This document shows, piece after piece, positions 3,142 to 32,867 of a stretch of DNA of 38,670 bases (positions within the stretch are counted from its first letter, which is position 1; each line of letters begins with the position of its first letter). Origin of the DNA: a virus; the IMG/VR virus record IMGVR_UViG_3300045988_088524, positions 1-38,670 of that record; one strand, written 5' to 3'. Under the pieces are notes generated by a model. That model saw only the letters and a program-made list of their open reading frames with translations, had not been told where the DNA came from and ran no database searches. The translations under genes were made by a program, and so were the position numbers.

Positions 3142-3171
3142 ATTATAACATACAGAAATACCCCTTGGCAA
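3142..3171 (-). promoter_or_regulatory. sigma-A-type promoter of the accessory cassette
   Basis: Minus strand TTGCCA (3171-3166), 18 nt, then TGT-TATAAT (3147-3142). Confidence 0.55.
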
Positions 3172-3184
3172 TGAAGCCAAGGGG
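3161..3184 (-). terminator. rho-independent terminator ending the late/lysis operon
   Basis: GCCCCTTGGC-N6-GCCAAGGGG, followed on the minus strand by TATTTCTGTATGTT. Confidence 0.65.
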
Positions 3185-3200
3185 CAACTTTCGTGCGTAT

Positions 3201-3401
3201 TTATTTGAGATGTTTAAACAGTCGTTCCTCCGACTTATAGACGACATTTTTAGTTTGGCGAACGGAAAGCCCAAACTCTTCCGCAAGTGGCTCGTAACAG
3301 ATACCGTCAATTAGCCTACGTTTGAGTATCTTGCGGTCACGTTCACTTTTAATCCACTCGTCAACTAGCGTAGACAACTCAGAGTTCGGTAAGTCAATCA
3401 T
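3201..3401 (-). CDS. sigma-70 region-4-like HTH protein
   Basis: 66 aa. ERDRKILKRRLIDGICYEPLAEEFGLSVRQTKNVVYKSEERL matches the region-4 HTH pattern. Confidence 0.5.
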   Translation of the reverse strand: MIDLPNSELSTLVDEWIKSERDRKILKRRLIDGICYEPLAEEFGLSVRQTKNVVYKSEERLFKHLK

Positions 3402-5060: not shown

Positions 5061-5669
5061 TTAAATTGTCCATACAGTCGTGTATCCGGCGTTGATGTTT
5101 GGTCCCCATAGATTTTCTGTTACCGTACCGTTACTGCTGGTACTCACGACTTTAATGTAGCCATCCGACTGTATCGACGACATATTGCCAGGCGTCTTGC
5201 CATAGTCAGGCACACGCAGTGCTATCTTATGCAACACAAGTTGTCCGTCGCGGTACGTGTCCACATAGTACACCATGTTGTCCTTATACGGCGCACCAGG
5301 AGGGCTAAACACGCCATACATCACCTGTGTTATTTCACCGTCCGAAGATATGGCTGTAAGATAAGGCCAGTCTGCTCCATCCATGCTCGGCTTGAACTCA
5401 CTATCCACATCAATTGTGGGCGGCGTTATCTCGGTGCCGTCAGGCAGCTGTGGTTTGATTTGGTCAATGACCCATTGTATAAGGTCATCAGCGTCCTTTT
5501 GGGATAACCCTCTGACATTGACGGTGACAGGGTCAAACCCGTCCGCGTTATCATCGGCTGCATGATAAGTGCCGTTTTTGGTAATAGTCTTGCTGATAAT
5601 TGTGCCGCCCGAGTCGGCTTTATGACCCAGCAGATACCCGACACAAACACCGGTTTCAAAGTCGTTCAT
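5061..5669 (-). CDS. distal tail protein, candidate receptor-binding protein
   Basis: 202 aa from ATG 5669. The call rests on its position immediately after Tal; no motif was recognised. Confidence 0.35.
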   Translation of the reverse strand: MNDFETGVCVGYLLGHKADSGGTIISKTITKNGTYHAADDNADGFDPVTVNVRGLSQKDADDLIQWVIDQIKPQLPDGTEITPPTIDVDSEFKPSMDGADWPYLTAISSDGEITQVMYGVFSPPGAPYKDNMVYYVDTYRDGQLVLHKIALRVPDYGKTPGNMSSIQSDGYIKVVSTSSNGTVTENLWGPNINAGYTTVWTI

Positions 5670-5683
5670 ACACGCACACACCC

Positions 5684-6982
5684 CTATTCGTATTTAATCG
5701 GCACTGCCCCGAAGTTGGTTAACTGCTTTTCGGCATCATAACTACATGCGAACGATGCCGTTGTGTCGTCCGTGTAGGTGATAGTAATGTTTACTATATC
5801 ATCATCGGCGTTCTTCTTGGCGGTAATTGAAGCTACATCAGCCTTACTTGTAGCCACCATATCCATGCCCGCGTCAACCTTACTTGTGGCCGCTACACTA
5901 GAAACGGATCGCTTTTTCGTTCCCAGGTCAATTGACGTGTATCTTTCATGCGCCACGTCAAACACGGTCTTGATGCATCGCTGTGTCACTGCCGACTCAC
6001 CATGACCCAAGTTGATGCTTATCGTGTCGCCAAGTTCGATATGGTCTACGTCGGTTAAATGTGCGTACTCCACGGTGCTACCCCTCGGTACGACCTTTAC
6101 ACTACATCTATTGGCGCTATTTCCGATGTCCAGGTTGGCTCTGACGAACTCGTGAATACATTCGTCTAAGTCGCTCGGCTGAGGCTTTTCGGAGAATTTA
6201 CTGGAACAGTCCAGAATGCATGGCTTGAAATAAAGGTCATTTACACTGGTGTTGGCGTACAGGGGCTTAAACACGGGGTCGGTGTAAACTATAGTTTGTG
6301 CACCGTCCCCTGCGTTAGGGTCTGCGCCTTTCCAAAAGGCACACACGCATGTGTATTGGCCGCTCGTGTCCCATTCCATTGTAGCAGTCTGGATATTCTC
6401 GCCATAGCTGACGGAAACGCCCCTATCACTGCCGCGACGGTCTAAGAGGGTTATTGCGTTGTTCGTAAACACCCAATCCCCACCCCACGTGGAAGCCATT
6501 CTATTTCTGACGGACTTTATCGCAGTGGGAGTCGGCACACTCCACTTATACACGGAGTTGTTGGTCAGCTCTGACACGAAAGTAAACCCCGGAACGTTAC
6601 CCTGTATGCTTGAATTGAGGTGTGCTATCATAGTGTCAACACTGCCCTCAGTGTCTTCGTAGTCCGTGTTGGGAAAGCAAACGTATCTGTCAACGGCATA
6701 AGTGGTATGCTCCGCCCAAATCGTAACCACTCCGCTAATAGGCTTCGATATCTTGTAGACCCTGAACAGCTGCGGGGTTTCGCAATAAGGGTTCGGCTTG
6801 GCTTTCACCCAACACGCCTCATGAATGTCTGAGTAGTGCACTCCAACTACGGGGTATTGCATCACCAACTCAAAAGACGTGTTCAGTTCTTCAGTTACAC
6901 TACACGTTATGACGTCGCGCAGAATGCCGACACCATTACCGCTGAAATCCGTTGCATCGCTGCTGTACAATATGGGAAACAT
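5684..6982 (-). CDS. tail-associated protein Tal (prophage tail endopeptidase-type N-terminal domain)
   Basis: Begins MFPILYSSDATDFSGNGVGILRD. RBS GGAGG. TAATG overlap with Dit. Confidence 0.75.
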   Translation of the reverse strand: MFPILYSSDATDFSGNGVGILRDVITCSVTEELNTSFELVMQYPVVGVHYSDIHEACWVKAKPNPYCETPQLFRVYKISKPISGVVTIWAEHTTYAVDRYVCFPNTDYEDTEGSVDTMIAHLNSSIQGNVPGFTFVSELTNNSVYKWSVPTPTAIKSVRNRMASTWGGDWVFTNNAITLLDRRGSDRGVSVSYGENIQTATMEWDTSGQYTCVCAFWKGADPNAGDGAQTIVYTDPVFKPLYANTSVNDLYFKPCILDCSSKFSEKPQPSDLDECIHEFVRANLDIGNSANRCSVKVVPRGSTVEYAHLTDVDHIELGDTISINLGHGESAVTQRCIKTVFDVAHERYTSIDLGTKKRSVSSVAATSKVDAGMDMVATSKADVASITAKKNADDDIVNITITYTDDTTASFACSYDAEKQLTNFGAVPIKYE

Positions 6983-7731
6983 TACAAGTACCTCCAATTT
7001 GGTTCAATGGACAGCACGTTGATGTCGCCTGACCAAGAAATGGCGTTTTCACCAGGAGATAGCGTGGGGAACTTAGTCCAATTTACTAAGGTGTTAAGTC
7101 CACCAGTTGCGCCCGACACGTCCAACCTGTCACTGTCAACAGTAGCAATCACAGGCTGTTTGGGGCTTCGTATCTCAAAGGTTTCGCCGTTCACAACGAG
7201 CGTACCCGCGCCACGAATGTTCACGGAAATTCTTGGGTATGCCACGAAAGGCGTAGGGTTGGTGAGGGTGCTGCTGTTCTTGGGAGTCTGTGAAGTTTGC
7301 CGTAACGCCCGCCGTGTGGTCTGCGTGGTCTGTACAGACTGTACAGTGTCAGCAAATCTGAATGGAGAACAGTCGAATACTATTGTGAATGGATTTAGCA
7401 AATTCAAGCGGGTCTGCAGTTCTGCCGCACTTGTGATGACTGCTTTGTAGTGGAATCCGCTTGTAATGCCAAGTTTACGTTCGCCAAATGTCCCGAGCAG
7501 GAACTCGGAAACGTTAGCCATGGCTGTGGTTACGTCATCTCCCAGACAGTAGCAGGTCGCTGTTGCTGTGCGGGAATCGTAGGCATCGTTGAATATGTGC
7601 ACATTTCCACTTCGCCCCGCTATCTTTACCGTTGTGATTGACGGCACGAGTGGGGAGAGTTCTATAGGCTTCTGCAAAATGACACCCTTTGACTTTGCCG
7701 AAACCCCGTCAAGTGTGAAATCAAGCTCCAT
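6982..7731 (-). CDS. distal tail protein Dit
   Basis: 249 aa, beginning MELDFTLDGVSAKSKGVIL...KIAGRSG, located after the tape measure. RBS GGGAGGTGG. Confidence 0.75.
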   Translation of the reverse strand: MELDFTLDGVSAKSKGVILQKPIELSPLVPSITTVKIAGRSGNVHIFNDAYDSRTATATCYCLGDDVTTAMANVSEFLLGTFGERKLGITSGFHYKAVITSAAELQTRLNLLNPFTIVFDCSPFRFADTVQSVQTTQTTRRALRQTSQTPKNSSTLTNPTPFVAYPRISVNIRGAGTLVVNGETFEIRSPKQPVIATVDSDRLDVSGATGGLNTLVNWTKFPTLSPGENAISWSGDINVLSIEPNWRYL

Positions 7732-10033
7732 AGCCCGCCACCTCCCTATCGGTTATAAACTGTATTCGTTCGGAAATTGCCGCCGCGAGTTCGTTGAAGT
7801 CCTGATATTGAACCCCATTGATGTTGATAACGATGCCGCCGAAACCTGACCCACCAAGGCCGCCCGACTTGGCGGGCTTAACTTCAGAAGTGGAGAAGTC
7901 CAGACCCTCGTTGATGCTCTTGGCAACCCCCGGAATCGTATCATCCCAACCCTCGCCAAGACCGAGAGCCAGAAACTCGCCCATTTCGGCAAACATCCTT
8001 GAGGGGCTGTGGATACCGAAGAAGTCCCTCAGTGTTTCCCTCAGCTTCTCGCCGCCCTCCTTGAACTTCTCCTTAACGCTTTCGACTCCGTTTTTGAAGC
8101 CCTCGCCAATGCCGTTCATCAACTGCTTGCCTATGTCACCCCAATCGACGGATAAAAATGCATCCTTGATTGCTGAGATGATTTCGGGGATTGCACCCAC
8201 TATCATGACGATTGCCTTGGGGATGCCCTCAATAATTGCCGTGAACAGGTTAACGCCTATGTCTATCATGAGCGAAATGTTGTTCATGAACGTTTCAATA
8301 CTCGCGGTTATAATTTCGGGCAGGGCTTCGACAACGTTCATAATTATTGTGGGCAGGTCAGCGATAAGTGACGAGAACAGTTCAACGCCCATCTGCATCA
8401 ATTCAGGAAAAGACTCCGCCAACGCTCCCGTAATCGAGGCTATTATCTCGGGGATTGCCGACACGAGATTTGTGATTATCGCAGGCAGGTCTTCAATAAT
8501 CGCCGTGAATAAGTCAATGCCCGCCTGAATTAGCTCAGATGTCAGTCCAAGTATAGCATTTACTATAGCGGAAATCAGCTCAGGAATTACCGCCACTATA
8601 CCACTAATTATGTCAGGCAAAGCACCAACTAGCGATGTGAGCAATGTAATTCCCGCGTTAACAATCAGCGGAATGCTTGTAACTACAGCGTCTATGACTG
8701 CGTTTATGATGGTCGGTATCATCGCCACTATAACAGGAATGTTTTCAACCACTGCCGTTATGACGTTCGTGATTATTATTGGAACAACTGAAATCAGTGT
8801 CGGAATCATTTCAATTATGCCTACTGCCAGATTGGTTACCAAGTCCAAAACTGCAGTGAGCAGGTTTGACAAAACATCGGGGCCAGTCAGAACTTCGATA
8901 ATACCAGTAACAACCTCGGCTAATGTGTTCATAAGTTCCCCAGAATTGTCGGAAATACCCCGTGTTAACTGGATAATTATTGTCGCGGCTGACTTCGCCA
9001 AATCGGGTAACTGCTTCATTGCGGTGTTTAGCACACTAGGTATTACTTTCACTAAATCCGTCGTTAGCGTAGTAACACTGTTAACCAAAATCGGGAAAAC
9101 GTCACTAAGTAGCTGCTCCAAGTGTGGCGGGATAACACTCGCTAAACTGGTTATTCCATCGAGTATTCGCGGGATAGTTTCACCGATTCGGGGAATAATG
9201 TTCTCGCCCACAGTTACGACACTCTCGACCAAGTTATCAATCAGCACACCGAGGTCTTGTGATGGGTCTGCCAGACCCGTCATTAAATTACCCCATGCCG
9301 ATTGCATGGAGGAAATGCTGCCCTGAATGGTGGTGCTTGCTTCTTTAGCGGTTGTTCCAGTTATGCCCATTTCTGTCTGTACTGCATGGATAGCTTCGAC
9401 TATTTTCGCATAACCAACTTCTGCCAACTGTGCGCCAATAGTCTGCGTATCGCTCAGGTCAAGCATAGCATCACCGAGTACACCAGAGTCGTTGACGAGT
9501 CTAGCCATTTCCGAAGCAGTACCGCCGTAGCCGAGCTTCAGGTTGTCGAGCATGGTGTAGTTCTGCTTGGCGAAACCCTGATAGGCATTCTGTATGGACT
9601 CTATGCTTGAACCCATTTTATTGGCGTTGTCCGCCATGTCGATTACGGCTTGGTTCGCCGCTTCAGCAGCAGCAGCTGTATCACCGTCAAGGCTCTGAAG
9701 CAATGACGCTGAGAAGCTGGTCACTGTTTCCATGTAGGCGTTTGCAGACATGCCCGCCGATTTATACGCAGCATCAGCATAACCCTGCACAACACCGGCA
9801 GAGTTCTTAAACAGGGTTTCCACGCCACCCACAAGCTGCTCATACTCTGCGTACTCGTCAATAGCACTCTTAGTTAGTGCTGTAACCCCCGCAGCAGCAG
9901 CAGTTACAGCCGCCCCGCCAACCTTTGCGGCGGTCGCAAGACCTGTCTTCAGCTTTCCAGACAAGCCGCTTATGCCGCTTTCGGCTTCAGATGTATCCGC
10001 ACCTATGCGTACAAACAGATCAAGCAGGTTCAA
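7721..10033 (-). CDS. tail tape measure protein
   Basis: 770 aa. It has a TP901-type N-terminal core, a long hydrophobic helical repeat region and a TTG start with RBS AAGAGGTGA. Confidence 0.9.
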   Translation of the reverse strand: MNLLDLFVRIGADTSEAESGISGLSGKLKTGLATAAKVGGAAVTAAAAGVTALTKSAIDEYAEYEQLVGGVETLFKNSAGVVQGYADAAYKSAGMSANAYMETVTSFSASLLQSLDGDTAAAAEAANQAVIDMADNANKMGSSIESIQNAYQGFAKQNYTMLDNLKLGYGGTASEMARLVNDSGVLGDAMLDLSDTQTIGAQLAEVGYAKIVEAIHAVQTEMGITGTTAKEASTTIQGSISSMQSAWGNLMTGLADPSQDLGVLIDNLVESVVTVGENIIPRIGETIPRILDGITSLASVIPPHLEQLLSDVFPILVNSVTTLTTDLVKVIPSVLNTAMKQLPDLAKSAATIIIQLTRGISDNSGELMNTLAEVVTGIIEVLTGPDVLSNLLTAVLDLVTNLAVGIIEMIPTLISVVPIIITNVITAVVENIPVIVAMIPTIINAVIDAVVTSIPLIVNAGITLLTSLVGALPDIISGIVAVIPELISAIVNAILGLTSELIQAGIDLFTAIIEDLPAIITNLVSAIPEIIASITGALAESFPELMQMGVELFSSLIADLPTIIMNVVEALPEIITASIETFMNNISLMIDIGVNLFTAIIEGIPKAIVMIVGAIPEIISAIKDAFLSVDWGDIGKQLMNGIGEGFKNGVESVKEKFKEGGEKLRETLRDFFGIHSPSRMFAEMGEFLALGLGEGWDDTIPGVAKSINEGLDFSTSEVKPAKSGGLGGSGFGGIVININGVQYQDFNELAAAISERIQFITDREVAGYGA
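8129..8656 (-). repeat. four tandem 44-aa (132-nt) repeats inside the tape measure
   Basis: Units start at aa 460, 504, 548 and 592 (AGITLL.., AGIDLF.., MGVELF.., IGVNLF..). Each contains LP.II...V.AIPEII. Confidence 0.7.
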
Positions 10034-12749: not shown

Positions 12750-13808
12750 TTAGCCCTTGCTGATGATTCTCGCAAAGGGGATAGCCTTGTTGTCATAGAA
12801 GCCCGTGCCGCCGGAGTTCTTCACCACAGTCCAACGCGCTGCTGTTTCCAGCTGCTCGTTAGTGGGGGAGATGATAGCCGAAGTGGGCTGTACGAAGCTG
12901 AAGCCCTTAGGCGCGAATATCTTACGCTGACGGGTAATCAACATTTCCTTGCCACCTGCAGACTTGGGGTCACGCCAAGTTTCGGAGGGCACCGCTGCAC
13001 CGCAGTCGCAGTAGTCAAACGCGCCCTGTCCGAGGATATAAGTCGTGTATTTGGTATAAGCGGGGACAACGTTCGGGGATTCGCCACTCTCGGGCACTTC
13101 CTCTGTGGGTACGTCATCGTCGATAAGAACGGTTCTACCGTTCCATGTTGCCAGTCCCGTGGACCTCTGGACGCCATTAGCGTCAGTCTGCTTGAAATAT
13201 TCAAGCACCTGCAGGTTCTCCAGATGTGTCGCTACCGTAGAATGCATGATTGCCATAGTAAACAGGTTCTTATTATCGCCGACTGCCTGCTGGATTGCGG
13301 TGTTCAGCGTAGTTGCGCCAACCATTGCAGCATCGTCAGTGTTGCCAGTGATGTCCAGCGTGTGCTTGGTGTTAAAGCTGTTTGCGGTTACGCCGAAGAT
13401 GCCCTTGAGGGTGGACAGGATAGTAACCTGGTCTACATCGTCCCAGTAGTCCGCTACCTGCTGAGCGATATCCTCCATGAAATCATGCCCAATAATGTCC
13501 TTGGAGAAGTCCTTTTCCTCCCACGCCTTAGCACGACCAACTACTATCATGGACTGCAGGAATGTGTCGAGGGTGCCGCCAGTAATATCGGTGTTGCCAT
13601 CGTAATTCTGCGCATCGCCGCCGATACGTCCCGTCATAGGTACGCTGATGAAGTTGCCGCCCGTCTGCTCTGTCAGCATAGTCTTAAGGTCCGCTCTGCT
13701 ACGCAGGATACCCGCCTTAATGAAAGCATTCTGCTTTACGCGAGGTACAGTTTCAAGGTATCTACCGAATACCTCGGAATTAAAAATCTTGGAATTAAAT
13801 ACACTCAT
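12750..13808 (-). CDS. major capsid protein
   Basis: 352 aa, after the scaffold gene. RBS TAGGAG. Confidence 0.85.
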   Translation of the reverse strand: MSVFNSKIFNSEVFGRYLETVPRVKQNAFIKAGILRSRADLKTMLTEQTGGNFISVPMTGRIGGDAQNYDGNTDITGGTLDTFLQSMIVVGRAKAWEEKDFSKDIIGHDFMEDIAQQVADYWDDVDQVTILSTLKGIFGVTANSFNTKHTLDITGNTDDAAMVGATTLNTAIQQAVGDNKNLFTMAIMHSTVATHLENLQVLEYFKQTDANGVQRSTGLATWNGRTVLIDDDVPTEEVPESGESPNVVPAYTKYTTYILGQGAFDYCDCGAAVPSETWRDPKSAGGKEMLITRQRKIFAPKGFSFVQPTSAIISPTNEQLETAARWTVVKNSGGTGFYDNKAIPFARIISKG

Positions 13809-13817
13809 AATTTACTC

Positions 13818-14432
13818 CTATTCTTTGTATAACGCCGCCACAGCATCAGCATGAGCGTTAGCATATTCCATCTGCTTCGACAGCGGCATCTTTTCGAAGT
13901 CCGCTTTCGTCATTGCGGTGTCGGTGTTGGGCGGTGTGTCCACATATGCACCATCGGTCTGGTCAGTCACGATGAAACCCGCCCAATCGCTCTTGATTGC
14001 CTCAGTAAGCTGGCCAACATTGACAAGCTGACCGTCCTTTACGGTCATACTGTCGAAGTCCGTGACCTTAAGTATCGCTTCCAGCCGCTTCTCATCGATA
14101 TGCTGTCCTTTCAGCAGGTCTGTATACAGTGCTTTCTTCGCCGAAAGTTCTTTTTCAGCCGCCACACTGGCTTTAAACTGCTCGAATGCTTCATGTTCTG
14201 CTGTGTACTTGGTTTCCCATTCGTCGTTAGCTGTCGCCCTCAGAGTGTCCAACTCTTTCTGAACATTCGGGAGCTTTTCTGCATCGGCTTTGTAAGTCGC
14301 AATTTCTTCCCGCAGTGCATTTATTGAAGTCACGTGTCCATCAATAATACTGTCAACCGCTTCGGTTACGTTTTCGGGGCTTACACCAGCCTTGCTGAGC
14401 ACTTCTTTGAGAAATGCCTTGGTTAACGCCAT
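13818..14432 (-). CDS. scaffolding protein
   Basis: 204 aa from ATG 14432 (RBS AAAGGAAG). It is acidic and helical and precedes the capsid gene. Confidence 0.75.
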   Translation of the reverse strand: MALTKAFLKEVLSKAGVSPENVTEAVDSIIDGHVTSINALREEIATYKADAEKLPNVQKELDTLRATANDEWETKYTAEHEAFEQFKASVAAEKELSAKKALYTDLLKGQHIDEKRLEAILKVTDFDSMTVKDGQLVNVGQLTEAIKSDWAGFIVTDQTDGAYVDTPPNTDTAMTKADFEKMPLSKQMEYANAHADAVAALYKE

Positions 14433-14492
14433 TACGATCTTCCTTTCTCTCGGCGGCTTTCTCTGCCGTTCAGATTCTTCTTCGTTATTATC

Positions 14493-14522
14493 ATTATACC
14501 ACACCAACGCCACTTTTGTCAA
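14493..14522 (-). promoter_or_regulatory. sigma-A-type promoter upstream of scaffold/capsid genes
   Basis: Minus strand TTGACA (14522-14517), 18 nt, then TGG-TATAAT (14498-14493). Confidence 0.6.
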
Positions 14523-14557
14523 GTAGTTTACTGCACTGTTCATTGTCAGCTGTTTTT

Positions 14558-14607
14558 CATTTGTATTGTATTGCACCCCTAAAGGGGTGCGCAATACAAT
14601 ACAAATG
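14558..14607. repeat. 22-bp-stem hairpin element, copy 1
   Basis: CATTTGTATTGTATTGCACCCC-TAAA-GGGGTG(CG)CAATACAATACAAATG. It lies 35 nt upstream of the -35 at 14522. Confidence 0.8.
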
Positions 14608-14759
14608 ACAAACTAACAGCCGCAAAATTGACATTTGTAATTGATTTGTATTGCTACAAATAAGCGTTAGGGTCAATTCCGAAGCGACTTCTCGGTAGTT
14701 GACCCTTTGACAGTTGCAATTATTTGTATTGTCAGCCGCACGACTGTCCATTTGACGGG

Positions 14760-15089
14760 CTACTCGCTGCTTTGCAAAGCGTCGTTGAGTATTCTTCGAT
14801 ACTCGTCCGCGTGGTCTGCCGCTGCAGGTTTCAAATAGGGCTGAGCGGGTGTTCTTACAGTGCCCATCTCGACATACACAGCATAGTCAACATTTGTACC
14901 TATATATGCGGCACTGTCGTCAGTTGTATGCGTGATACTGTTTCGCAGTCTGCCCGTATCCACGGGACAGAGTCGCTTCGCGTATCCCTCGGCAACGAGA
15001 CCTATCTTTTCAAGCCCCACCCCCACCTGGTCGGCTAGTGCATCAAGCACCTCTTCGGTATTATCTTGTCTAATCTCAAGCCCATTCAT
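14760..15089 (-). CDS. HK97 gp10-family head-tail joining protein
   Basis: Contains PVDTGRLRNSI...VDYAVYVEMGT...PYLKPA. ATG 15089 with RBS GGAGGAG. Confidence 0.8.
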   Translation of the reverse strand: MNGLEIRQDNTEEVLDALADQVGVGLEKIGLVAEGYAKRLCPVDTGRLRNSITHTTDDSAAYIGTNVDYAVYVEMGTVRTPAQPYLKPAAADHADEYRRILNDALQSSE

Positions 15090-15125
15090 GGCGGTTCTCC
15101 TCCATATCACAACACACGATACATA

Positions 15126-15237: not shown

Positions 15238-15396
15238 TTAATACACAGCACCCTCTTCGGGTTCTATCTCCTCGCCAGACTCCAATGCTTTCTCGACCTC
15301 ACGGACAAGTGTTTCATCTGATGCACCCATCATGAGAAAGTACGGAAATCCACCAAATTTCTTAGTGTATGCCTCAATTGTTTCTTCTCGTGTCAT
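15238..15396 (-). CDS. 52-aa conserved-looking small protein downstream of MuF
   Basis: MTREETIEAYTKKFGGFPYFLMMGASDETLVREVEKALESGEEIEPEEGAVY. ATGA overlap with the MuF stop. It is below the track length cutoff. Confidence 0.5.
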   Translation of the reverse strand: MTREETIEAYTKKFGGFPYFLMMGASDETLVREVEKALESGEEIEPEEGAVY

Positions 15397-24591: not shown

Positions 24592-24942
24592 ATGACTGAA
24601 TACATTGACAGGGAAGCGTTTAAGAAAAGTGTCGAGGGGCGTTATTGCAAGCCGTGCAAGGCGGAGGGGAAAGACCACAACGAACGTTGGTGTCGTACCT
24701 GTTGGGTTGACGATATGCTCGATGAGGCAGATTGCTTCCAGCCGTCTGATGTTGCACCCGTAAAGCACGGGCGTTGGTTCAAAGAGGATAGAGCTGTTAC
24801 CTGTAGCAATTGTGGCCGCTGCTATGATAGCGACTTTGAGATAAAAGCCGCAATTGTAATGAAGTTCGAGCATTGTCCCGATTGCGGTGCGATTATGGAC
24901 GAGGAACGGGGGGTGAGGGAGAATGAAAGTGGAAATGACTAA
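24592..24942 (+). CDS. Cys-rich protein, function unknown
   Basis: 116 aa from ATG 24592 (RBS AAAGGAGA). Contains CKPC...CRTC and CSNCGRC...CPDC. Confidence 0.5.
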   Translation: MTEYIDREAFKKSVEGRYCKPCKAEGKDHNERWCRTCWVDDMLDEADCFQPSDVAPVKHGRWFKEDRAVTCSNCGRCYDSDFEIKAAIVMKFEHCPDCGAIMDEERGVRENESGND

Positions 24943-25219
24943 GCGCAGGTACGCTAGATATACTGAGAGTGATATACTTAAAGAGGCCCGCATGTTTTGC
25001 GAAGCCCGCATCAGCATTGCCGGGATTGCGAAGCGTCTGCAGATGTCCTGCTCAACGGTGTCCTGGCATTTGCTCTACCCATTGAAAAACATAAATTACA
25101 GCCTGTGGGTTGCCGTACGTAAGGAATGCTTTACACACGCCAAGAAGCCCGAGTATTACATGAACGAAACCGATTTAATTGAAGTCGGCGTAACTCAAAG
25201 GAGGGCTGGTAATGACTGA
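24923..25219 (+). CDS. SpoIIID-like HTH DNA-binding protein
   Basis: IAKRLQMSCSTVSWHLLYPLKNINYSLWVAVRKE parallels SpoIIID IAKEFGVSKSTVHKDLTERLPEINPDLANEVKE. Confidence 0.5.
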   Translation: MKVEMTKRRYARYTESDILKEARMFCEARISIAGIAKRLQMSCSTVSWHLLYPLKNINYSLWVAVRKECFTHAKKPEYYMNETDLIEVGVTQRRAGND

Positions 25220-26671: not shown

Positions 26672-27067
26672 ATGAAGGACTTGTTAACCACATGTGCCAC
26701 ATGCGGCATAAGTTTTTGGTGCGAAAGAGGGACCATTTACAGAGCAACAGTTAAAGGTTGTGTTAAGCGGTTCTGCTCTTATATATGTTGGATGAAATAT
26801 AAGGAGGAAAAACACATGGCAAAAATAATAATCAAAAACAGACTTAAAGAATATCGCGACCGCGCAAGGCTCACCTTGCAGGAGGTCAGCATCTTAACAG
26901 GTTTCGACATTACGACCATCAGCCGCCACGAATCGGGACAGCGTGGGCTGTCCGATGAAGCTATGGAGAAGTACGCTGCGCTCTATAAGGTAAAGACACA
27001 CGAACTGCTTGATTTAAGAGGTGGCGATGATGAACAGTGTACTAACGCAGGCGAATGGATATATTGA
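26672..27067 (+). CDS. XRE-family HTH regulator with N-terminal Cys-rich extension (nested in-frame start at 26816)
   Basis: The HTH is LTLQEVSILTGFDITTISRHESGQRG. Both ATG 26672 and ATG 26816 have strong GGAGGA sites. Confidence 0.7.
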   Translation: MKDLLTTCATCGISFWCERGTIYRATVKGCVKRFCSYICWMKYKEEKHMAKIIIKNRLKEYRDRARLTLQEVSILTGFDITTISRHESGQRGLSDEAMEKYAALYKVKTHELLDLRGGDDEQCTNAGEWIY

Positions 27068-32272: not shown

Positions 32273-32294
32273 AGTAATATAGGAGGTGATAATA

Positions 32295-32867
32295 ATGATA
32301 TTGGTTCCGACAAACCCTAAAGAGGACTTTGTTTCAATCGTCAACAAACATATTAAGCGCGATGGTATTGCAGACTTAATGGATTGGATTGAAACAACAG
32401 ACTTCTTCGTGGCTCCTGCTTCGTCTAGATACCACGGAGCACATGAAGGTGGTCTGCTTGAACATAGTGTGGCAGTCTACCACCATCTTGTGAGCCTCGC
32501 CAACTTTTACAAAGTTGATGTCTCCATGGAAACTATCGCTATTGTAGCCCTGTTCCACGACCTTTGTAAAGTGGGTATGTACAAGACTGAAATGCGTTGG
32601 CGCAAGGACGCGAACAACCAGTGGGAACAGTACCCGACGTACAAACGTGACGAGGATTTCAAATTTGGCGGTCACGGCTCGAAATCAGTATACCTTGTGC
32701 AGAACTTCATAAAGCTGACTCCCGAAGAGGCTGTTGCAATCAACTGCCATATGGGACAGTGGGACGCAACAACTTACAGCGATGTATCTTCAGCTTTTGA
32801 AGACTGCCTGCTGGCGTGGGCGCTCCACGTGGCAGACGAAGCGGCGACTTACATCGACAAATCTTAA
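32295..32867 (+). CDS. HD-domain phosphohydrolase (candidate dNTP/dATP hydrolase)
   Basis: 190 aa from ATG 32295 (RBS AGGAGGTG). Contains LEHS, LFHDLCK and HVADEA. Confidence 0.8.
   Translation: MILVPTNPKEDFVSIVNKHIKRDGIADLMDWIETTDFFVAPASSRYHGAHEGGLLEHSVAVYHHLVSLANFYKVDVSMETIAIVALFHDLCKVGMYKTEMRWRKDANNQWEQYPTYKRDEDFKFGGHGSKSVYLVQNFIKLTPEEAVAINCHMGQWDATTYSDVSSAFEDCLLAWALHVADEAATYIDKS

Follow-up and report, generated by a model that had tools for sequence, protein, structure and literature searches.

A foldable palindrome with phased 8-bp half-sites as a candidate replication or late-gene control module in uncultivated PrimPol/PolA/PurZ phages

Positions 14433-14759 of the phage record IMGVR_UViG_3300045988_088524 (the window, analysed over its full 38,670 nucleotides) form the gap that separates a gp10-like/Neck1 gene from the (scaffold) gene preceding that of the major capsid protein. 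A preliminary description regarded this gap as a non-coding island and located in it a long hairpin, shorter repeats and a promoter. This account was upheld: the ORFs within the gap matched no family, and every feature described is present there, far beyond what chance would give, including the short palindrome ATTTGTA-TTGC-TACAAAT, the inverted repeat AGGGTCAA/TTGACCCT (14669-14676 and 14699-14706) and a further motif near 14723, which reads ATTTGTATTG (14722-14731). No other inverted repeat in the entire window is as long as the long hairpin and a second one upstream of terS, here termed copies (a) and (b). Each forms the core of a cis-acting DNA module of about 250 bp, and the parts of the two modules follow in the same order, promoter included (Table 1).

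Table 1. Features of the two module copies and of the genes discussed in the text (window coordinates).
Feature	Position	Strand	Details or basis
Leader of about 55 nt with small CGGC...GCCG stem and conserved CCGAGAGAAAGGAAG ribosome-binding region	14433..14492	minus	sequence, relatives
Sigma-A/sigma-70-type extended -10 promoter, scaffold and capsid genes	14493..14522	minus	TTGACA-18-TGgTATAAT, 12/12
Long palindrome, copy (a)	14552..14613	none	28-nt arms, 89% complementary
Half-site copy with 1 mismatch, ATTTGTAA	14632-14639		sequence
Short operator-like palindrome, ATTTGTA-TTGC-TACAAAT	14644..14661		sequence; in relatives TGTTGYAT-N2-4-ATRCAACA
GC-rich stem-loop, GGGTCAA...TTGACCC, inner CCGAG/CTTCGG, then UAACGCUUAUUUGUAG on the late-sense strand	14669..14706	minus	
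Isolated half-site ATTTGTAT	14722..14729	plus	sequence, motif count
gp10-like/Neck1 gene	14760-15110	minus	Pfam HK97-gp10_like, E 1e-7; PHROG 5, E 2e-21
Sigma-A-type promoter, terS and packaging genes	20660..20688	minus	TTGACA-17-TGcTACAAT, 11/12
Half-site, ATACAAAT on the late-sense strand	20692..20699	plus	3 nt from the terS -35 hexamer, on its upstream side
Long palindrome, copy (b)	20718..20772	none	26-nt arms, 92% complementary
Weak GC-rich stem-loop in the divergent region	20840..20855		sequence
Three direct ATTTGTAT half-sites, starts 10 and 12 bp apart	20876..20915		sequence, motif count
Promoter site	21021..21050	plus	12/12
XRE-type helix-turn-helix protein	26672..27067	plus	Pfam HTH_31, E 4e-10
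PrimPol - PriCT_1 - AAA_25 helicase protein with C-terminal MarR-like winged helix	27021..28832	plus	Pfam

The arms of copy (a) consist of overlapping ATTTGTAT/TATTGTAT half-sites enclosing a GC-rich centre with a 2-nt bulge, CACCCC-TAAA-GGGGTG, and copy (b) has the centre TTCCCCC-TTTT-AGGGGGAA. The left arms of both copies contain CATTTGTATTGTATTG, whereas the inner stems differ and yet pair (CACCCC/GGGGTG versus TTCCCCC/GGGGGAA). On either strand both hairpins gave fold z-scores of -8.5 to -11, and none of 200 dinucleotide shuffles folded as well; folded as DNA, the predicted energy was -23 to -25 kcal/mol (z about -9 to -11). A single DNA strand of the palindrome is thereby predicted to form a stable hairpin that has been kept as a structure, as in ssi or OriL signals.

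Each palindrome is followed by a strong promoter, and the hairpin-then-promoter order previously described for both loci was recovered. Counted from the hairpin ends of that description, the promoter of the scaffold and capsid genes begins 35 nt past copy (a), and its sequence bears out the proposed internal consensus promoter (TTGACA-18-TATAAT with TG); the terS promoter lies 32 nt after copy (b). Transcription from these two promoters is predicted to begin near 14486 and 20653. Together with the plus-strand site at 21021..21050, these are the best three promoter sites between 12 and 22 kb, and their quality and position stand out although the total number of promoter-like matches in that interval is not above shuffle expectation. 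The late (terS) and early promoters diverge from an untranscribed spacer that contains copy (b), at the exact point where the purine skew and the coding strand switch. No relative carries a late-sense gene upstream of this copy, and no incoming transcription could be detected on either strand of this region as judged from the sequence. Since this copy nevertheless has the full module, the element is expected to act as DNA.

We found about 56 distinct palindromes of this family in IMG/VR phage contigs. They belong to uncultivated siphoviruses that have in common an early module encoding a PrimPol-helicase, a family A DNA polymerase (PolA) and PurZ. The palindromes span 45-60 bp, with stems of 22-26 bp and conserved arms (TGTTGTATTGYAT; ATTTGTAT... 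in the clade of the window) around a GC-rich centre stem that is free to vary and a loop of 3-6 nt. They occupy fixed places, namely the gp10-like/scaffold gap, the divergent region between terS and the early genes and, sometimes, the interior of the early operon. About 31 relatives have an orthologue of copy (a) in the same gap and about 23 have one of copy (b); the two were retained in every family member examined, although the structural proteins are merely 33-50% identical, and the arms are better conserved than the proteins. At these two late sites, 42 of 54 copies are followed by a near-consensus extended -10 promoter (24/31 at (a), with a score of at least 11, and 18/23 at (b)). Between the palindrome end and the -35 there are 12-66 nt (mostly 26-66 nt), with neither periodicity nor helical phasing, which disfavours a stereospecific activator, whose operator would hold a fixed position or helical phase. 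Genomes carry from 2 to 3 or more copies, and the early-operon sites may be occupied or empty. Those in the early operon are promoterless, with the following start codon 22-35 nt away. In seven contigs such a copy separates the PrimPol gene from the nuclease gene, another copy stands 22 nt ahead of the PolA match, and the copy before the PolA gene in L377 comprises little more than the palindrome.

The proposal that compensatory change reflects selection on the structure itself was substantiated by a covariation search across these relatives. The 56 palindromes contain 53 different centres, nearly all self-complementary, with a mean pairing of 5.4 bp compared with 3.3 bp when halves were swapped between copies (maximum 3.8 in 200 trials). 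RNAalifold run on a MAFFT alignment recovered the arms only, as centres of variable length misalign, and the centres were for this reason analysed separately. The arm pairs show compensatory UA-to-CG changes. Thus, the pairing of most of the 53 centres and the compensatory arm changes argue for selection on intrastrand pairing, although template-switch 'palindrome correction' could supply some compensatory change without selection.

The two strands of the palindrome do not appear equivalent, since the pyrimidine-rich loop falls on the strand that is sense for the downstream gene in 49 cases versus 8, counts that are not phylogenetically independent. This strand specificity, as expected of an ssi or OriL-like signal, divides by place into 26:0 at (a), 8:0 in the early operon and 15:8 at (b), and it opposes the background composition, in which the sense strand is purine-rich. 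Lineages L383 and L254 have no pyrimidine-loop copy on the early arm. In the clade of the window, a flipped loop at (b) is paired with absent early-operon copies, a pattern contradicted by two other lineages. Stem mismatches gave no significant strand bias: G-U versus A-C stood at 18 versus 18 at (b), and at (a) the difference between sense and antisense folding energy had p = 0.10 (G-U pairs 30 versus 14).

The 8-bp half-site recurs around each palindrome copy as additional sites at a spacing of 10-12 bp. The window has 14 occurrences of ATTTGTAT where 1.5 are expected and 100 shuffles gave 4 at most, and 10 of the 14 fall in the two intergenic regions; other clades have the variant TGTTGYAT. 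Family-wide, 10-12 bp is the commonest spacing of same-orientation neighbours (29 of 62 neighbour pairs). As in iteron-type origins, several short repeats thus stand in helical phase, exemplified by the three direct sites at 20876-20905, the last of which forms with an inverted copy the perfect 18-bp palindrome ATTTGTATATATACAAAT. Close relatives keep this block, and the biggest half-site cluster is invariably at the strand switch. In the more distant subfamily L392, 21 half-sites crowd into 430 bp, and three phased sites 10 bp apart replace the -35 of an extended -10 late promoter. Most relatives have an equivalent of the short palindrome about 55 nt upstream of the long one. As would suit an operator, each of the two late promoters, like the early one, is preceded by short palindromes or half-sites, and the half-sites between palindrome and promoter are near-uniform in orientation (39:1 at (b), 30:9 at (a)). 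Conserved arms, lone half-sites and short palindromes all point to a sequence-specific DNA-binding protein.

The palindrome travels with the PrimPol/PolA/PurZ early module and not with the structural genes. Phages with 60-64% portal identity but other early genes carry no such palindromes (about 20 loci with the full 10 kb upstream and more with 4-8 kb), whereas the palindromes are present at every locus showing the early module; PrimPol-wHTH, PolA, HD and PurZ are encoded by all family members with enough coverage. The top candidate for the trans-acting partner of the half-sites would be the C-terminal winged helix of the PrimPol-helicase, a protein 64-93% identical across the family, winged helix included. 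The XRE-type protein, with a helix-turn-helix 51-83% identical across the family, is an alternative candidate. Between the ATTTGTAT clade and the TGTTGYAT clades the recognition helices of both proteins differ slightly, which does not discriminate between them. A further candidate is a paralogous C-terminal region of two early proteins of 201 and 269 aa, for which no Pfam, PHROG or PDB match was found; a common winged-helix-like C-terminal segment was recognised by eye (BLASTP, 16 residues, E 0.001). Two binders suggested earlier, a sigma-r4-like protein (3201-3401; Sigma70_r4 Pfam E 0.04) and a SpoIIID-like protein (24923-25219; SpoIIID Pfam E 0.08), were not supported, and the RinA-like protein of L392 has no homologue in the window.

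Searches outside the family returned little. An Rfam scan of the whole window gave no match at gathering thresholds, and neither region matched GenBank phages by DNA similarity. A pattern scan of 185,579 species genomes produced 80 matches, only one of them with the gene context of the family (L363, a binned phage contig), so that the many chromosomal copies typical of REP- or MITE-like host repeats were not seen in those genomes. Literature searches on hairpins or cruciforms at late promoters and on PurZ phages and their promoters yielded nothing relevant. By these searches, the combination of a foldable palindrome with 8-bp candidate protein-binding repeats appears undescribed and restricted to a single family of uncultivated phages from gut and rumen.

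The module most likely marks a site of primase-helicase action or of late-gene control. Tentatively, and with less than even confidence, we propose that it is a protein-bound DNA hairpin and iteron module for a replication origin or for priming. An early-module DNA-binding protein, the best candidate being the winged helix of the PrimPol-helicase, would bind the half-sites, and the palindrome would be active on the sense strand, folded there into a hairpin of single-stranded DNA; this strand would be the lagging-strand template if forks ran outward from the divergent region at 20.7 kb. On this view, copy (b), located at the strand switch, would be an iteron-type origin, and copy (a) and the early-operon copies of relatives would be single-strand initiation signals, with the stem serving for recognition and the pyrimidine loop or 3' flank as priming template. 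The strong outward promoters beside (a) and (b), perhaps co-regulated by the half-site-binding protein, may hold the element in a negatively supercoiled stretch, untranscribed at (b) and probably read through at (a). The pairing kept across varied centres, the unequal strands, the expected action as DNA, the unphased promoter distance, linkage to the early module, iteron-like spacing and promoter-independent early-operon copies argue for this replication reading. It is weakened by the position of the universal copies (a) and (b), always just upstream of late promoters and in the same polarity, and by half-sites that abut promoters (3 nt from the terS -35; in place of the -35 in L392). Moreover, the cassette from terminator to promoter looks, from its layout, as if it had been duplicated as a unit, as expected of a promoter-control element. 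Inspection revealed no clear AT-rich unwinding block beside the repeats, the flanks being A/C-rich or mixed, and an origin-like site amid a structural operon is unusual; both weaken the replication reading, as do the two lineages without an early-arm pyrimidine-loop copy and the lack of a significant strand bias in stem mismatches. The skew argument for an origin is confounded by the coding-strand switch.

Should the element serve as an origin or in priming, it would rank as the first cis-element described in these Clostridia phages, a widespread group from gut and rumen whose replication uses a PrimPol-helicase and a family A polymerase and whose DNA probably contains 2-aminoadenine; the half-site and hairpin would then offer defined substrates for start-site choice by such primase-helicases. 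If it is a late-gene switch, it would reveal how late expression is timed in a lytic phage whose promoters are of perfect host type. In both cases the motif gives a compact, searchable signature for the phage family and marks its two late promoters, and its 53 centres make it a clear case of structure-level covariation in a DNA element.

The main competing explanation, which we consider possible but doubtful, is an operator or enhancer array, in which an early-module transcription factor (XRE, a winged-helix-like early protein or the PrimPol winged helix) would bind the half-sites and switch, repress or insulate the two late promoters and perhaps the early one. The long palindrome would be a high-affinity, multi-site nucleation point, its centre kept palindromic by template-switch correction or as a cruciform part of the switch. 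This would account for the near-consensus extended -10 promoter after 42 of 54 late-site copies, the identical part order of (a) and (b) through the promoter, the half-site orientation bias, the three 10-bp-spaced sites replacing a late -35 in L392, the 18-bp palindrome typical of a dimer operator and the half-sites upstream of the early promoter; a regulator gene would also be expected to travel with the early module, as observed. Phi29 p4, which binds inverted repeats upstream of promoters (PMC1904284), and RinA, which acts upstream of terS (PMC3152322), offer precedents, as phage-specific repeats, inverted in some cases, lie just upstream of late promoters, that of terS included. However, the sites of p4 and of RinA/ArpU-type activators do not form hairpin-capable palindromes whose centres covary, a -35 is usually missing from their promoters whereas the late promoters of the window are consensus, and a RinA-like protein is encoded only by subfamily L392. 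An operator also leaves unexplained why 53 centres are self-complementary, GC-rich and short-looped and why the loop is pyrimidine-rich on one given strand; the palindrome-promoter distance of 12-66 nt lacks helical phasing, the early-operon copies 22-35 nt from the next start codon are promoterless, and promoters with consensus -35 and -10 have no obvious need for activation.

Roles at the RNA level are less likely, and we regard as improbable that the hairpin acts in transcripts as a terminator, insulator, RNase III processing site or stabiliser between operons. Copies (a), (c) and (d), the last two in the early operon, are at positions that sense transcription is expected to cross, have the most marked loop bias on the RNA-sense strand (26:0 and 8:0) and possess stems of 22-26 bp, long enough for RNase III. 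A canonical terminator precedes only about 2-4 of 29 (a) sites. In sister lineages that do not have the PurZ module, the gp10-like/scaffold slot is occupied by a canonical A-tract/hairpin/T-tract terminator, sometimes with a promoter after it, and PurZ is encoded by all family members with coverage. Against this, copy (b) has the whole module yet no detectable incoming transcription, the conserved arms, lone half-sites and short palindromes suggest a DNA-binding protein, the stems have no significant G-U versus A-C bias, Rfam gave no match, and efficient termination right before polymerase or nuclease genes would be harmful. A position at the 3' end of a transcription unit holds for (a) and the early-operon copies, whereas (b) lies between divergent promoters. 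The earlier statement that no U-tract terminator is present was confirmed: both strands have the stem and an A/C-rich 3' arm or flank but no T-tract, which rejects a Rho-independent terminator by its U-tract, and the RNA 3' of the full stem is GC-rich in most relatives. Quite unlikely is an intrinsic terminator adapted to a genome containing 2-aminoadenine (Z). With Z in the template, an rU:dZ hybrid would have three hydrogen bonds, so that rA:dT, and not a U-tract, would form the weakest RNA:DNA hybrid, and a bidirectional terminator would be expected to combine a GC hairpin with a U-rich 5' arm and an A-rich 3' arm. The inverted arm polarity in the slot where PurZ-less sister phages have a canonical terminator prompts this reading; the canonical hairpin-plus-T-tract terminators in the same genomes (window 474-449 and 3186-3159; L392 15725-15763) undercut its premise, and the untranscribed copy (b) and sequence-specific arms weaken it further. 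Most improbable of all is a functionless selfish or neutral repeat, or small mobile element, kept perfect by template switching. Quasi-palindrome correction is a known mutational process, copy number varies (2 to 3 or more, with variable presence in the early operon) and the copy before the PolA gene in L377 is minimal. Nevertheless, (a) and (b) are orthologous and kept in every member examined despite 33-50% structural-protein identity, the arms are more conserved than proteins, the loop bias opposes composition, phased half-sites surround the palindrome, and there is neither a transposase nor a host-genome copy, the single family match among the 80 being a binned phage contig.

The alpha protein of satellite phage P4, a primase-helicase fusion whose primase fold differs from that of the PrimPol of the window, binds ori and crr through a C-terminal DNA-binding domain. 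By analogy, the phage module resembles P4 in having two clusters of one short repeat, direct and inverted, several kb apart; unlike it, P4 sites are without a long GC-centred hairpin and are not tied to late promoters. The oriV of RSF1010 (IncQ) combines iterons with ssiA/ssiB hairpins used by the AEP-type primase RepB' (PMC8567376). Both systems have repeated initiator sites, hairpin-forming inverted sequences serving both strands and a primase of the archaeo-eukaryotic class, and the RSF1010 hairpin is recognised as folded single-stranded DNA (PMC8567376), as the phage hairpin may be by analogy. In contrast, the phage module has one perfect palindrome with the same stem on both strands, arms built from the same half-sites as the repeats, and 2-4 dispersed copies per genome, the core ones beside strong promoters; sequence similarity is absent, and priming would be an analogy. 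Mitochondrial OriL forms a stem-loop when single-stranded, and primer synthesis begins in the T-stretch of its loop (PMC4256270). Both stem-loops are kept as structure and not as sequence, and the phage loops are pyrimidine-rich on one strand, but OriL is used by RNA polymerase and not by a PrimPol, its stem is not a protein-specific sequence, and the phage loops are just 3-6 nt; the likeness is an analogy only. Bidirectional intrinsic terminators have in common with the module a GC-rich stem-loop, complementary A/T-rich arms and the inter-operon slot of the sister-phage terminator. Their polarity is reversed in the phage, where each strand has its T-rich arm on the 5' side and its A-rich arm on the 3' side; the phage module also has sequence-conserved arms, no U-tract and one copy where nothing is transcribed.

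Other elements built on hairpins or repeats were discarded. N4-type hairpin promoters have a 5-7-bp stem and a 3-nt loop recognised by a phage-encoded virion RNA polymerase (PMC4496689), whereas the stems here measure 22-26 bp and the ORFs scanned include no RNA polymerase gene. An ssDNA promoter of the sso or Frpo type would require a stem long enough for -35 and -10 boxes, which this one is not. A pac site or TerS-binding array leaves the second copy and the early-operon copies unexplained; a telomere-resolution site is at odds with two or more copies and with the lack of a protelomerase-like domain among the ORFs scanned, and integron attC sites or IS200-type ends with the lack of an integrase or transposase.

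The fold of the leader at 14433..14492 was not significant (z about -1.2 to -1.6). The stem-loop at 14669..14706 (fold z = -4.3 as DNA, -2.7 as RNA) is kept in close relatives and is a candidate weak terminator of the transcription unit running from terS to the gp10-like gene; relatives L153 and L180 have a canonical terminator at its position. Some relatives carry a stronger terminator-like hairpin at the place of the weak stem-loop at 20840..20855.

All the elements listed in the preliminary description were found in place, and its two hairpins, one between the gp10-like and scaffold genes (site a) and one between terS and the first early genes (site b), are the two longest inverted repeats of the 38.7-kb window, with folding z-scores of -8.5 to -11 whichever strand is folded. 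The gap at site (a), positions 14433-14759, holds short ORFs only, none matching any family. The motif ATTTGTAT occurs 14 times in the window against 1.5 expected, 10 of these copies falling within the two intergenic regions. The best three sigma-70-type sites between 12 and 22 kb are two minus-strand sites directly downstream of the hairpins and a plus-strand early promoter.

Features of the window discussed in the text
Feature	Position	Strand	Remark
Hairpin, 11-bp stem	449-474	minus	T-rich tail
Hairpin, 11-bp stem	3159-3186	minus	T-rich tail
Major capsid gene	12750-13808	minus	late gene
Putative scaffold gene	13818-14432	minus	late gene; named from position alone, no family match
Scaffold-gene leader	14436-14486	minus
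Long palindrome, site (a)	14552-14613
Short palindrome	14644-14661		ATTTGTA-TTGC-TACAAAT
gp10-like/Neck1 (tail-completion) gene	14760-15110	minus	late gene
MuF-like head protein gene	15393-17264	minus	late gene
Portal gene	17304-18725	minus	late gene
terL	18715-19977	minus	late gene
terS	20061-20615	minus	late gene
Long palindrome, site (b)	20718-20772
Short palindrome	20898-20915		ATTTGTATATATACAAAT
Second operator family	20921-21017		TTGTGCAA-N-TTGCACAA
Early promoter	21021-21050	plus	12/12 extended -10
Early protein, 201 aa	21445-22050	plus	lysine-rich linker
Early protein, 269 aa	23175-23984	plus	lysine-rich linker
XRE-type protein	26672-27067	plus
HD hydrolase	32286-32867		beside PurZ-like gene
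Family A DNA polymerase	34207-35976		beside PurZ-like gene
Short adenylosuccinate synthetase, 376 aa	36485-37615	plus	PurZ-like; PDB matches
dUTPase-fold protein	37605-38045		beside PurZ-like gene

Neither hairpin region matched any GenBank phage at the DNA level, and a scan of the window against Rfam gave no match. The nearest capsid proteins among cultured phages, those of Clostridium phages, are about 50% identical; relatives are numerous among IMG/VR contigs of gut and rumen samples, and more were gathered with a pattern scan for the palindrome arms. The collection comprises 56 distinct palindromes of one family, with arms TGTTGTATTG(Y)AT ... AT(R)CAATACAACA (outer end ATTTGTAT in the window's clade) around centres of 10-31 nt that take 53 different sequences. 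Most centres form a stem of 4-9 bp, as a rule rich in GC, closed by a loop of 3-6 nt, and their mean pairing of 5.4 bp fell to 3.3 bp when halves were exchanged between copies (maximum 3.8 in 200 trials). Close relatives carry TTCCCCC/GGGGGAA, TTTCCCC/GGGGAA, TTCCC/GGGA and TTCCTCC/GGAGGA at the terS copy; overall, pyrimidines make up 88% of the 5' half and purines 85% of the 3' half, a pattern kept by compensatory transitions through G-T intermediates. The proposal that pairing itself is maintained is thus strongly supported, although quasi-palindrome template-switch correction could be a partial, selection-free source of it. The hairpins are real and far more general than was visible from one genome, with structural covariation and strand asymmetry of unusual clarity. 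A scan of 185,579 bacterial species genomes for the arm pattern returned one family member only, on a binned phage contig; the palindrome is therefore not a host repeat, and none was seen in integrated prophages. Long palindrome, short palindromes and half-sites form a lineage-specific cis-module without match in the databases and literature searched.

Sites (a) (about 31 distinct copies) and (b) (about 23) are universal in the family, and site (b) coincides exactly with the switch of coding strand and purine skew. Further copies lie between the PrimPol and nuclease genes in seven contigs (site c) and, in one contig, 22 nt before the PolA match (site d); there the next start codon follows within 22-35 nt, a space too short for a promoter. 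Of the 54 cases at (a) and (b), 42 have a near-consensus TTGACA-17/18-TGnTATAAT promoter directed away from the palindrome, at a distance of 12-66 nt and without helical periodicity.

Each long palindrome has conserved flanks and is ringed by additional single 8-bp half-sites; relatives also carry an 18-bp short palindrome, TGTTGYAT-N2-4-ATRCAACA. Isolated half-sites and arms vary together at their outer bases (ATACAAAT vs ATACAACA), a joint change that points to one sequence-specific protein as the putative binder of both. From the palindrome to the promoter or ribosome-binding site, half-site orientation is nearly uniform (39:1 at (b), 30:9 at (a), and a third count of 9:1), and neighbouring half-sites of the same orientation are most commonly spaced 10-12 bp apart. 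An unrelated second operator family, with 3-4 copies flanking the early promoter and one adjoining its -35, is conserved in close and distant relatives and probably represents autoregulatory operators of a Cro/XRE-like protein.

The complete module at copy (b) lies between divergent promoters, where transcription is not detectable, and in none of the relatives does a late-sense gene lie upstream of it; judged from this layout, the half-sites must act as DNA sites. Stem mismatches showed no significant bias between G-U and A-C. Read on the strand that is sense for the downstream gene, 49 loops are rich in pyrimidines and 8 in purines, counts that are not phylogenetically independent (26:0 at (a), 15:8 at (b), 8:0 for (c) plus (d)), the exceptions being essentially the window's clade. 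Sense strands are purine-rich overall. The palindrome's two hairpins are therefore not equivalent, and some single-stranded state of the sense strand matters.

Portal relatives (60-64% identity) lacking the window's early genes had no such palindromes, among about 20 loci with the full 10 kb upstream and more with 4-8 kb, whereas every locus in which the early module is visible has them. Because the palindromes accompany this module and not host genomes, their partner should, on this co-occurrence, be encoded within it. Every family member that is sufficiently covered has genes for an SNF2 helicase, an XRE protein, a PD-(D/E)XK nuclease, an HD hydrolase, a PrimPol-PriCT-helicase whose C-terminus is a MarR-like winged helix, a family A DNA polymerase, a short PurZ-like adenylosuccinate synthetase and a dUTPase-fold protein. 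The 201- and 269-aa early proteins, conserved family-wide, are further candidate repeat binders: neither has a sequence match in Pfam, PHROG or PDB, and by eye they share a winged-helix-like C-terminal segment (…LT.KQV…G.(M/V)(I/L)STL.EKG…), of which BLASTP aligns only 16 residues (E 0.001). In the window's clade the XRE-type protein is extended at its N-terminus by about 50 aa that include several cysteines (CATCG...C...CSYIC), an extension absent from other clades. Neither an integrase nor a CI-type repressor domain was found among the window ORFs scanned.

We tentatively favour a protein-bound DNA element of the replication machinery, for which we infer binding, hairpin formation and initiation alike. 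The half-sites, in helical phase and most crowded at the strand switch, would correspond to iterons, and the structure-selected hairpin, with its defined functional strand and pyrimidine loop, to a single-strand initiation signal. Bidirectional forks from copy (b) would make the sense strand of both gene arms the lagging-strand template, and the strong outward-facing promoters could leave negatively supercoiled DNA at copies (a) and (b). The phage's archaeo-eukaryotic-class primase, fused to helicase and winged helix, is a candidate reader of the repeats; this architecture reads origin repeats in other systems. The module resembles, in kind, known origin/ssi or operator architectures. For the replication reading, P4 ori/crr offers a third precedent beside the two that follow. 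In RSF1010, the ssiA/ssiB hairpins are used by RepB' (PMC8567376), and at mitochondrial OriL, whose loop forms on single-stranded DNA only, priming begins in the loop's T-stretch (PMC4256270).

An operator array for the late promoters is a possible, if doubtful, alternative. The universal, polar association with both late promoters, the apparent duplication of the entire cassette and the half-sites at the -35 position in the more distant L392 subfamily speak for it, but it does not account for the covariation of the centre, the biased loop, the lack of phasing in the spacing or the copies that have no promoter. Iteron-binding Rep proteins are initiators and regulators at once, and by analogy a combined role, in which an initiator also regulates, is quite possible. 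RNA-level roles of the hairpin are unlikely. They would suit the loop bias as well as the copies at (a), (c) and (d); copy (b) and the half-site arrays do not fit them. In sister phages without the PurZ module, the same gp10-like/scaffold slot is taken by a canonical A-tract/hairpin/T-tract terminator, with arm polarity opposite to that of the window family's element. Such inversion would be expected of a terminator suited to a 2-aminoadenine template, where rA:dT, not rU:dZ, is the weak hybrid, but ordinary terminators persist in the same genomes and the arms are sequence-specific, so this explanation is very unlikely. A purely selfish or neutral repeat is very unlikely given the orthologous retention of copies and the observed biases.

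The synthetase finds its best PDB matches in archaeal short PurA, in 7vf6, a 'PurA-like' phage enzyme, and in Vibrio phage PurZ entries (6fko); PurZ-type genes of Gordonia, Arthrobacter and Streptomyces phages share about 32-34% identity with it. Together with its neighbours, it marks this gut and rumen phage family as a candidate 2-aminoadenine (Z-genome) group.

In L392, whose PrimPol is 64% identical, the divergent region contains 21 half-sites within 430 bp, and the late promoter has an extended -10 and no -35, three half-sites at 10-bp spacing occupying that position. Its long hairpin has a centre identical to window copy (b) and different arms. A DUF1492/RinA-like gene (L392 710-1180, minus; Pfam E 7e-4, just under cut-off) lies directly upstream of the late operon; L393 and L394 belong to the same RinA-like-gene subfamily. 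The L190-L225 group, different phages with portals 62% identical and another early module, carries long palindromes of another kind before terS, at about 1.9-2.1 kb upstream of the portal gene, built of tandem ACTGTGTATAC units with A/T-rich centres (one in L205 is perfect, with a 29-bp stem); these are analogous but unrelated to the window's element.

Among the late genes, the gp10-like/Neck1 gene occupies an unusual place for a connector gene, between the MuF-like head and scaffold genes, kept family-wide. The scaffold-gene leader, conserved in distant relatives, has a small stem, whose fold is not significant, then CCGAAGAAAAGGAGA immediately before the start codon. The two 11-bp-stem hairpins past the lysis genes, on the late-sense strand, are the window's only strong canonical terminator candidates. 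Major capsid matches are 110-320 nt longer than the window's in several relatives, among them L153, L154 and L164 (where the matches run from 4001 to about 5311-5374), L143 and L146, and in L260 the match (6599-7972) is split in two by a gap of about 360 nt. These matches suggest that the capsid gene has received an insertion, be it an intron, an intein or a mobile gene.
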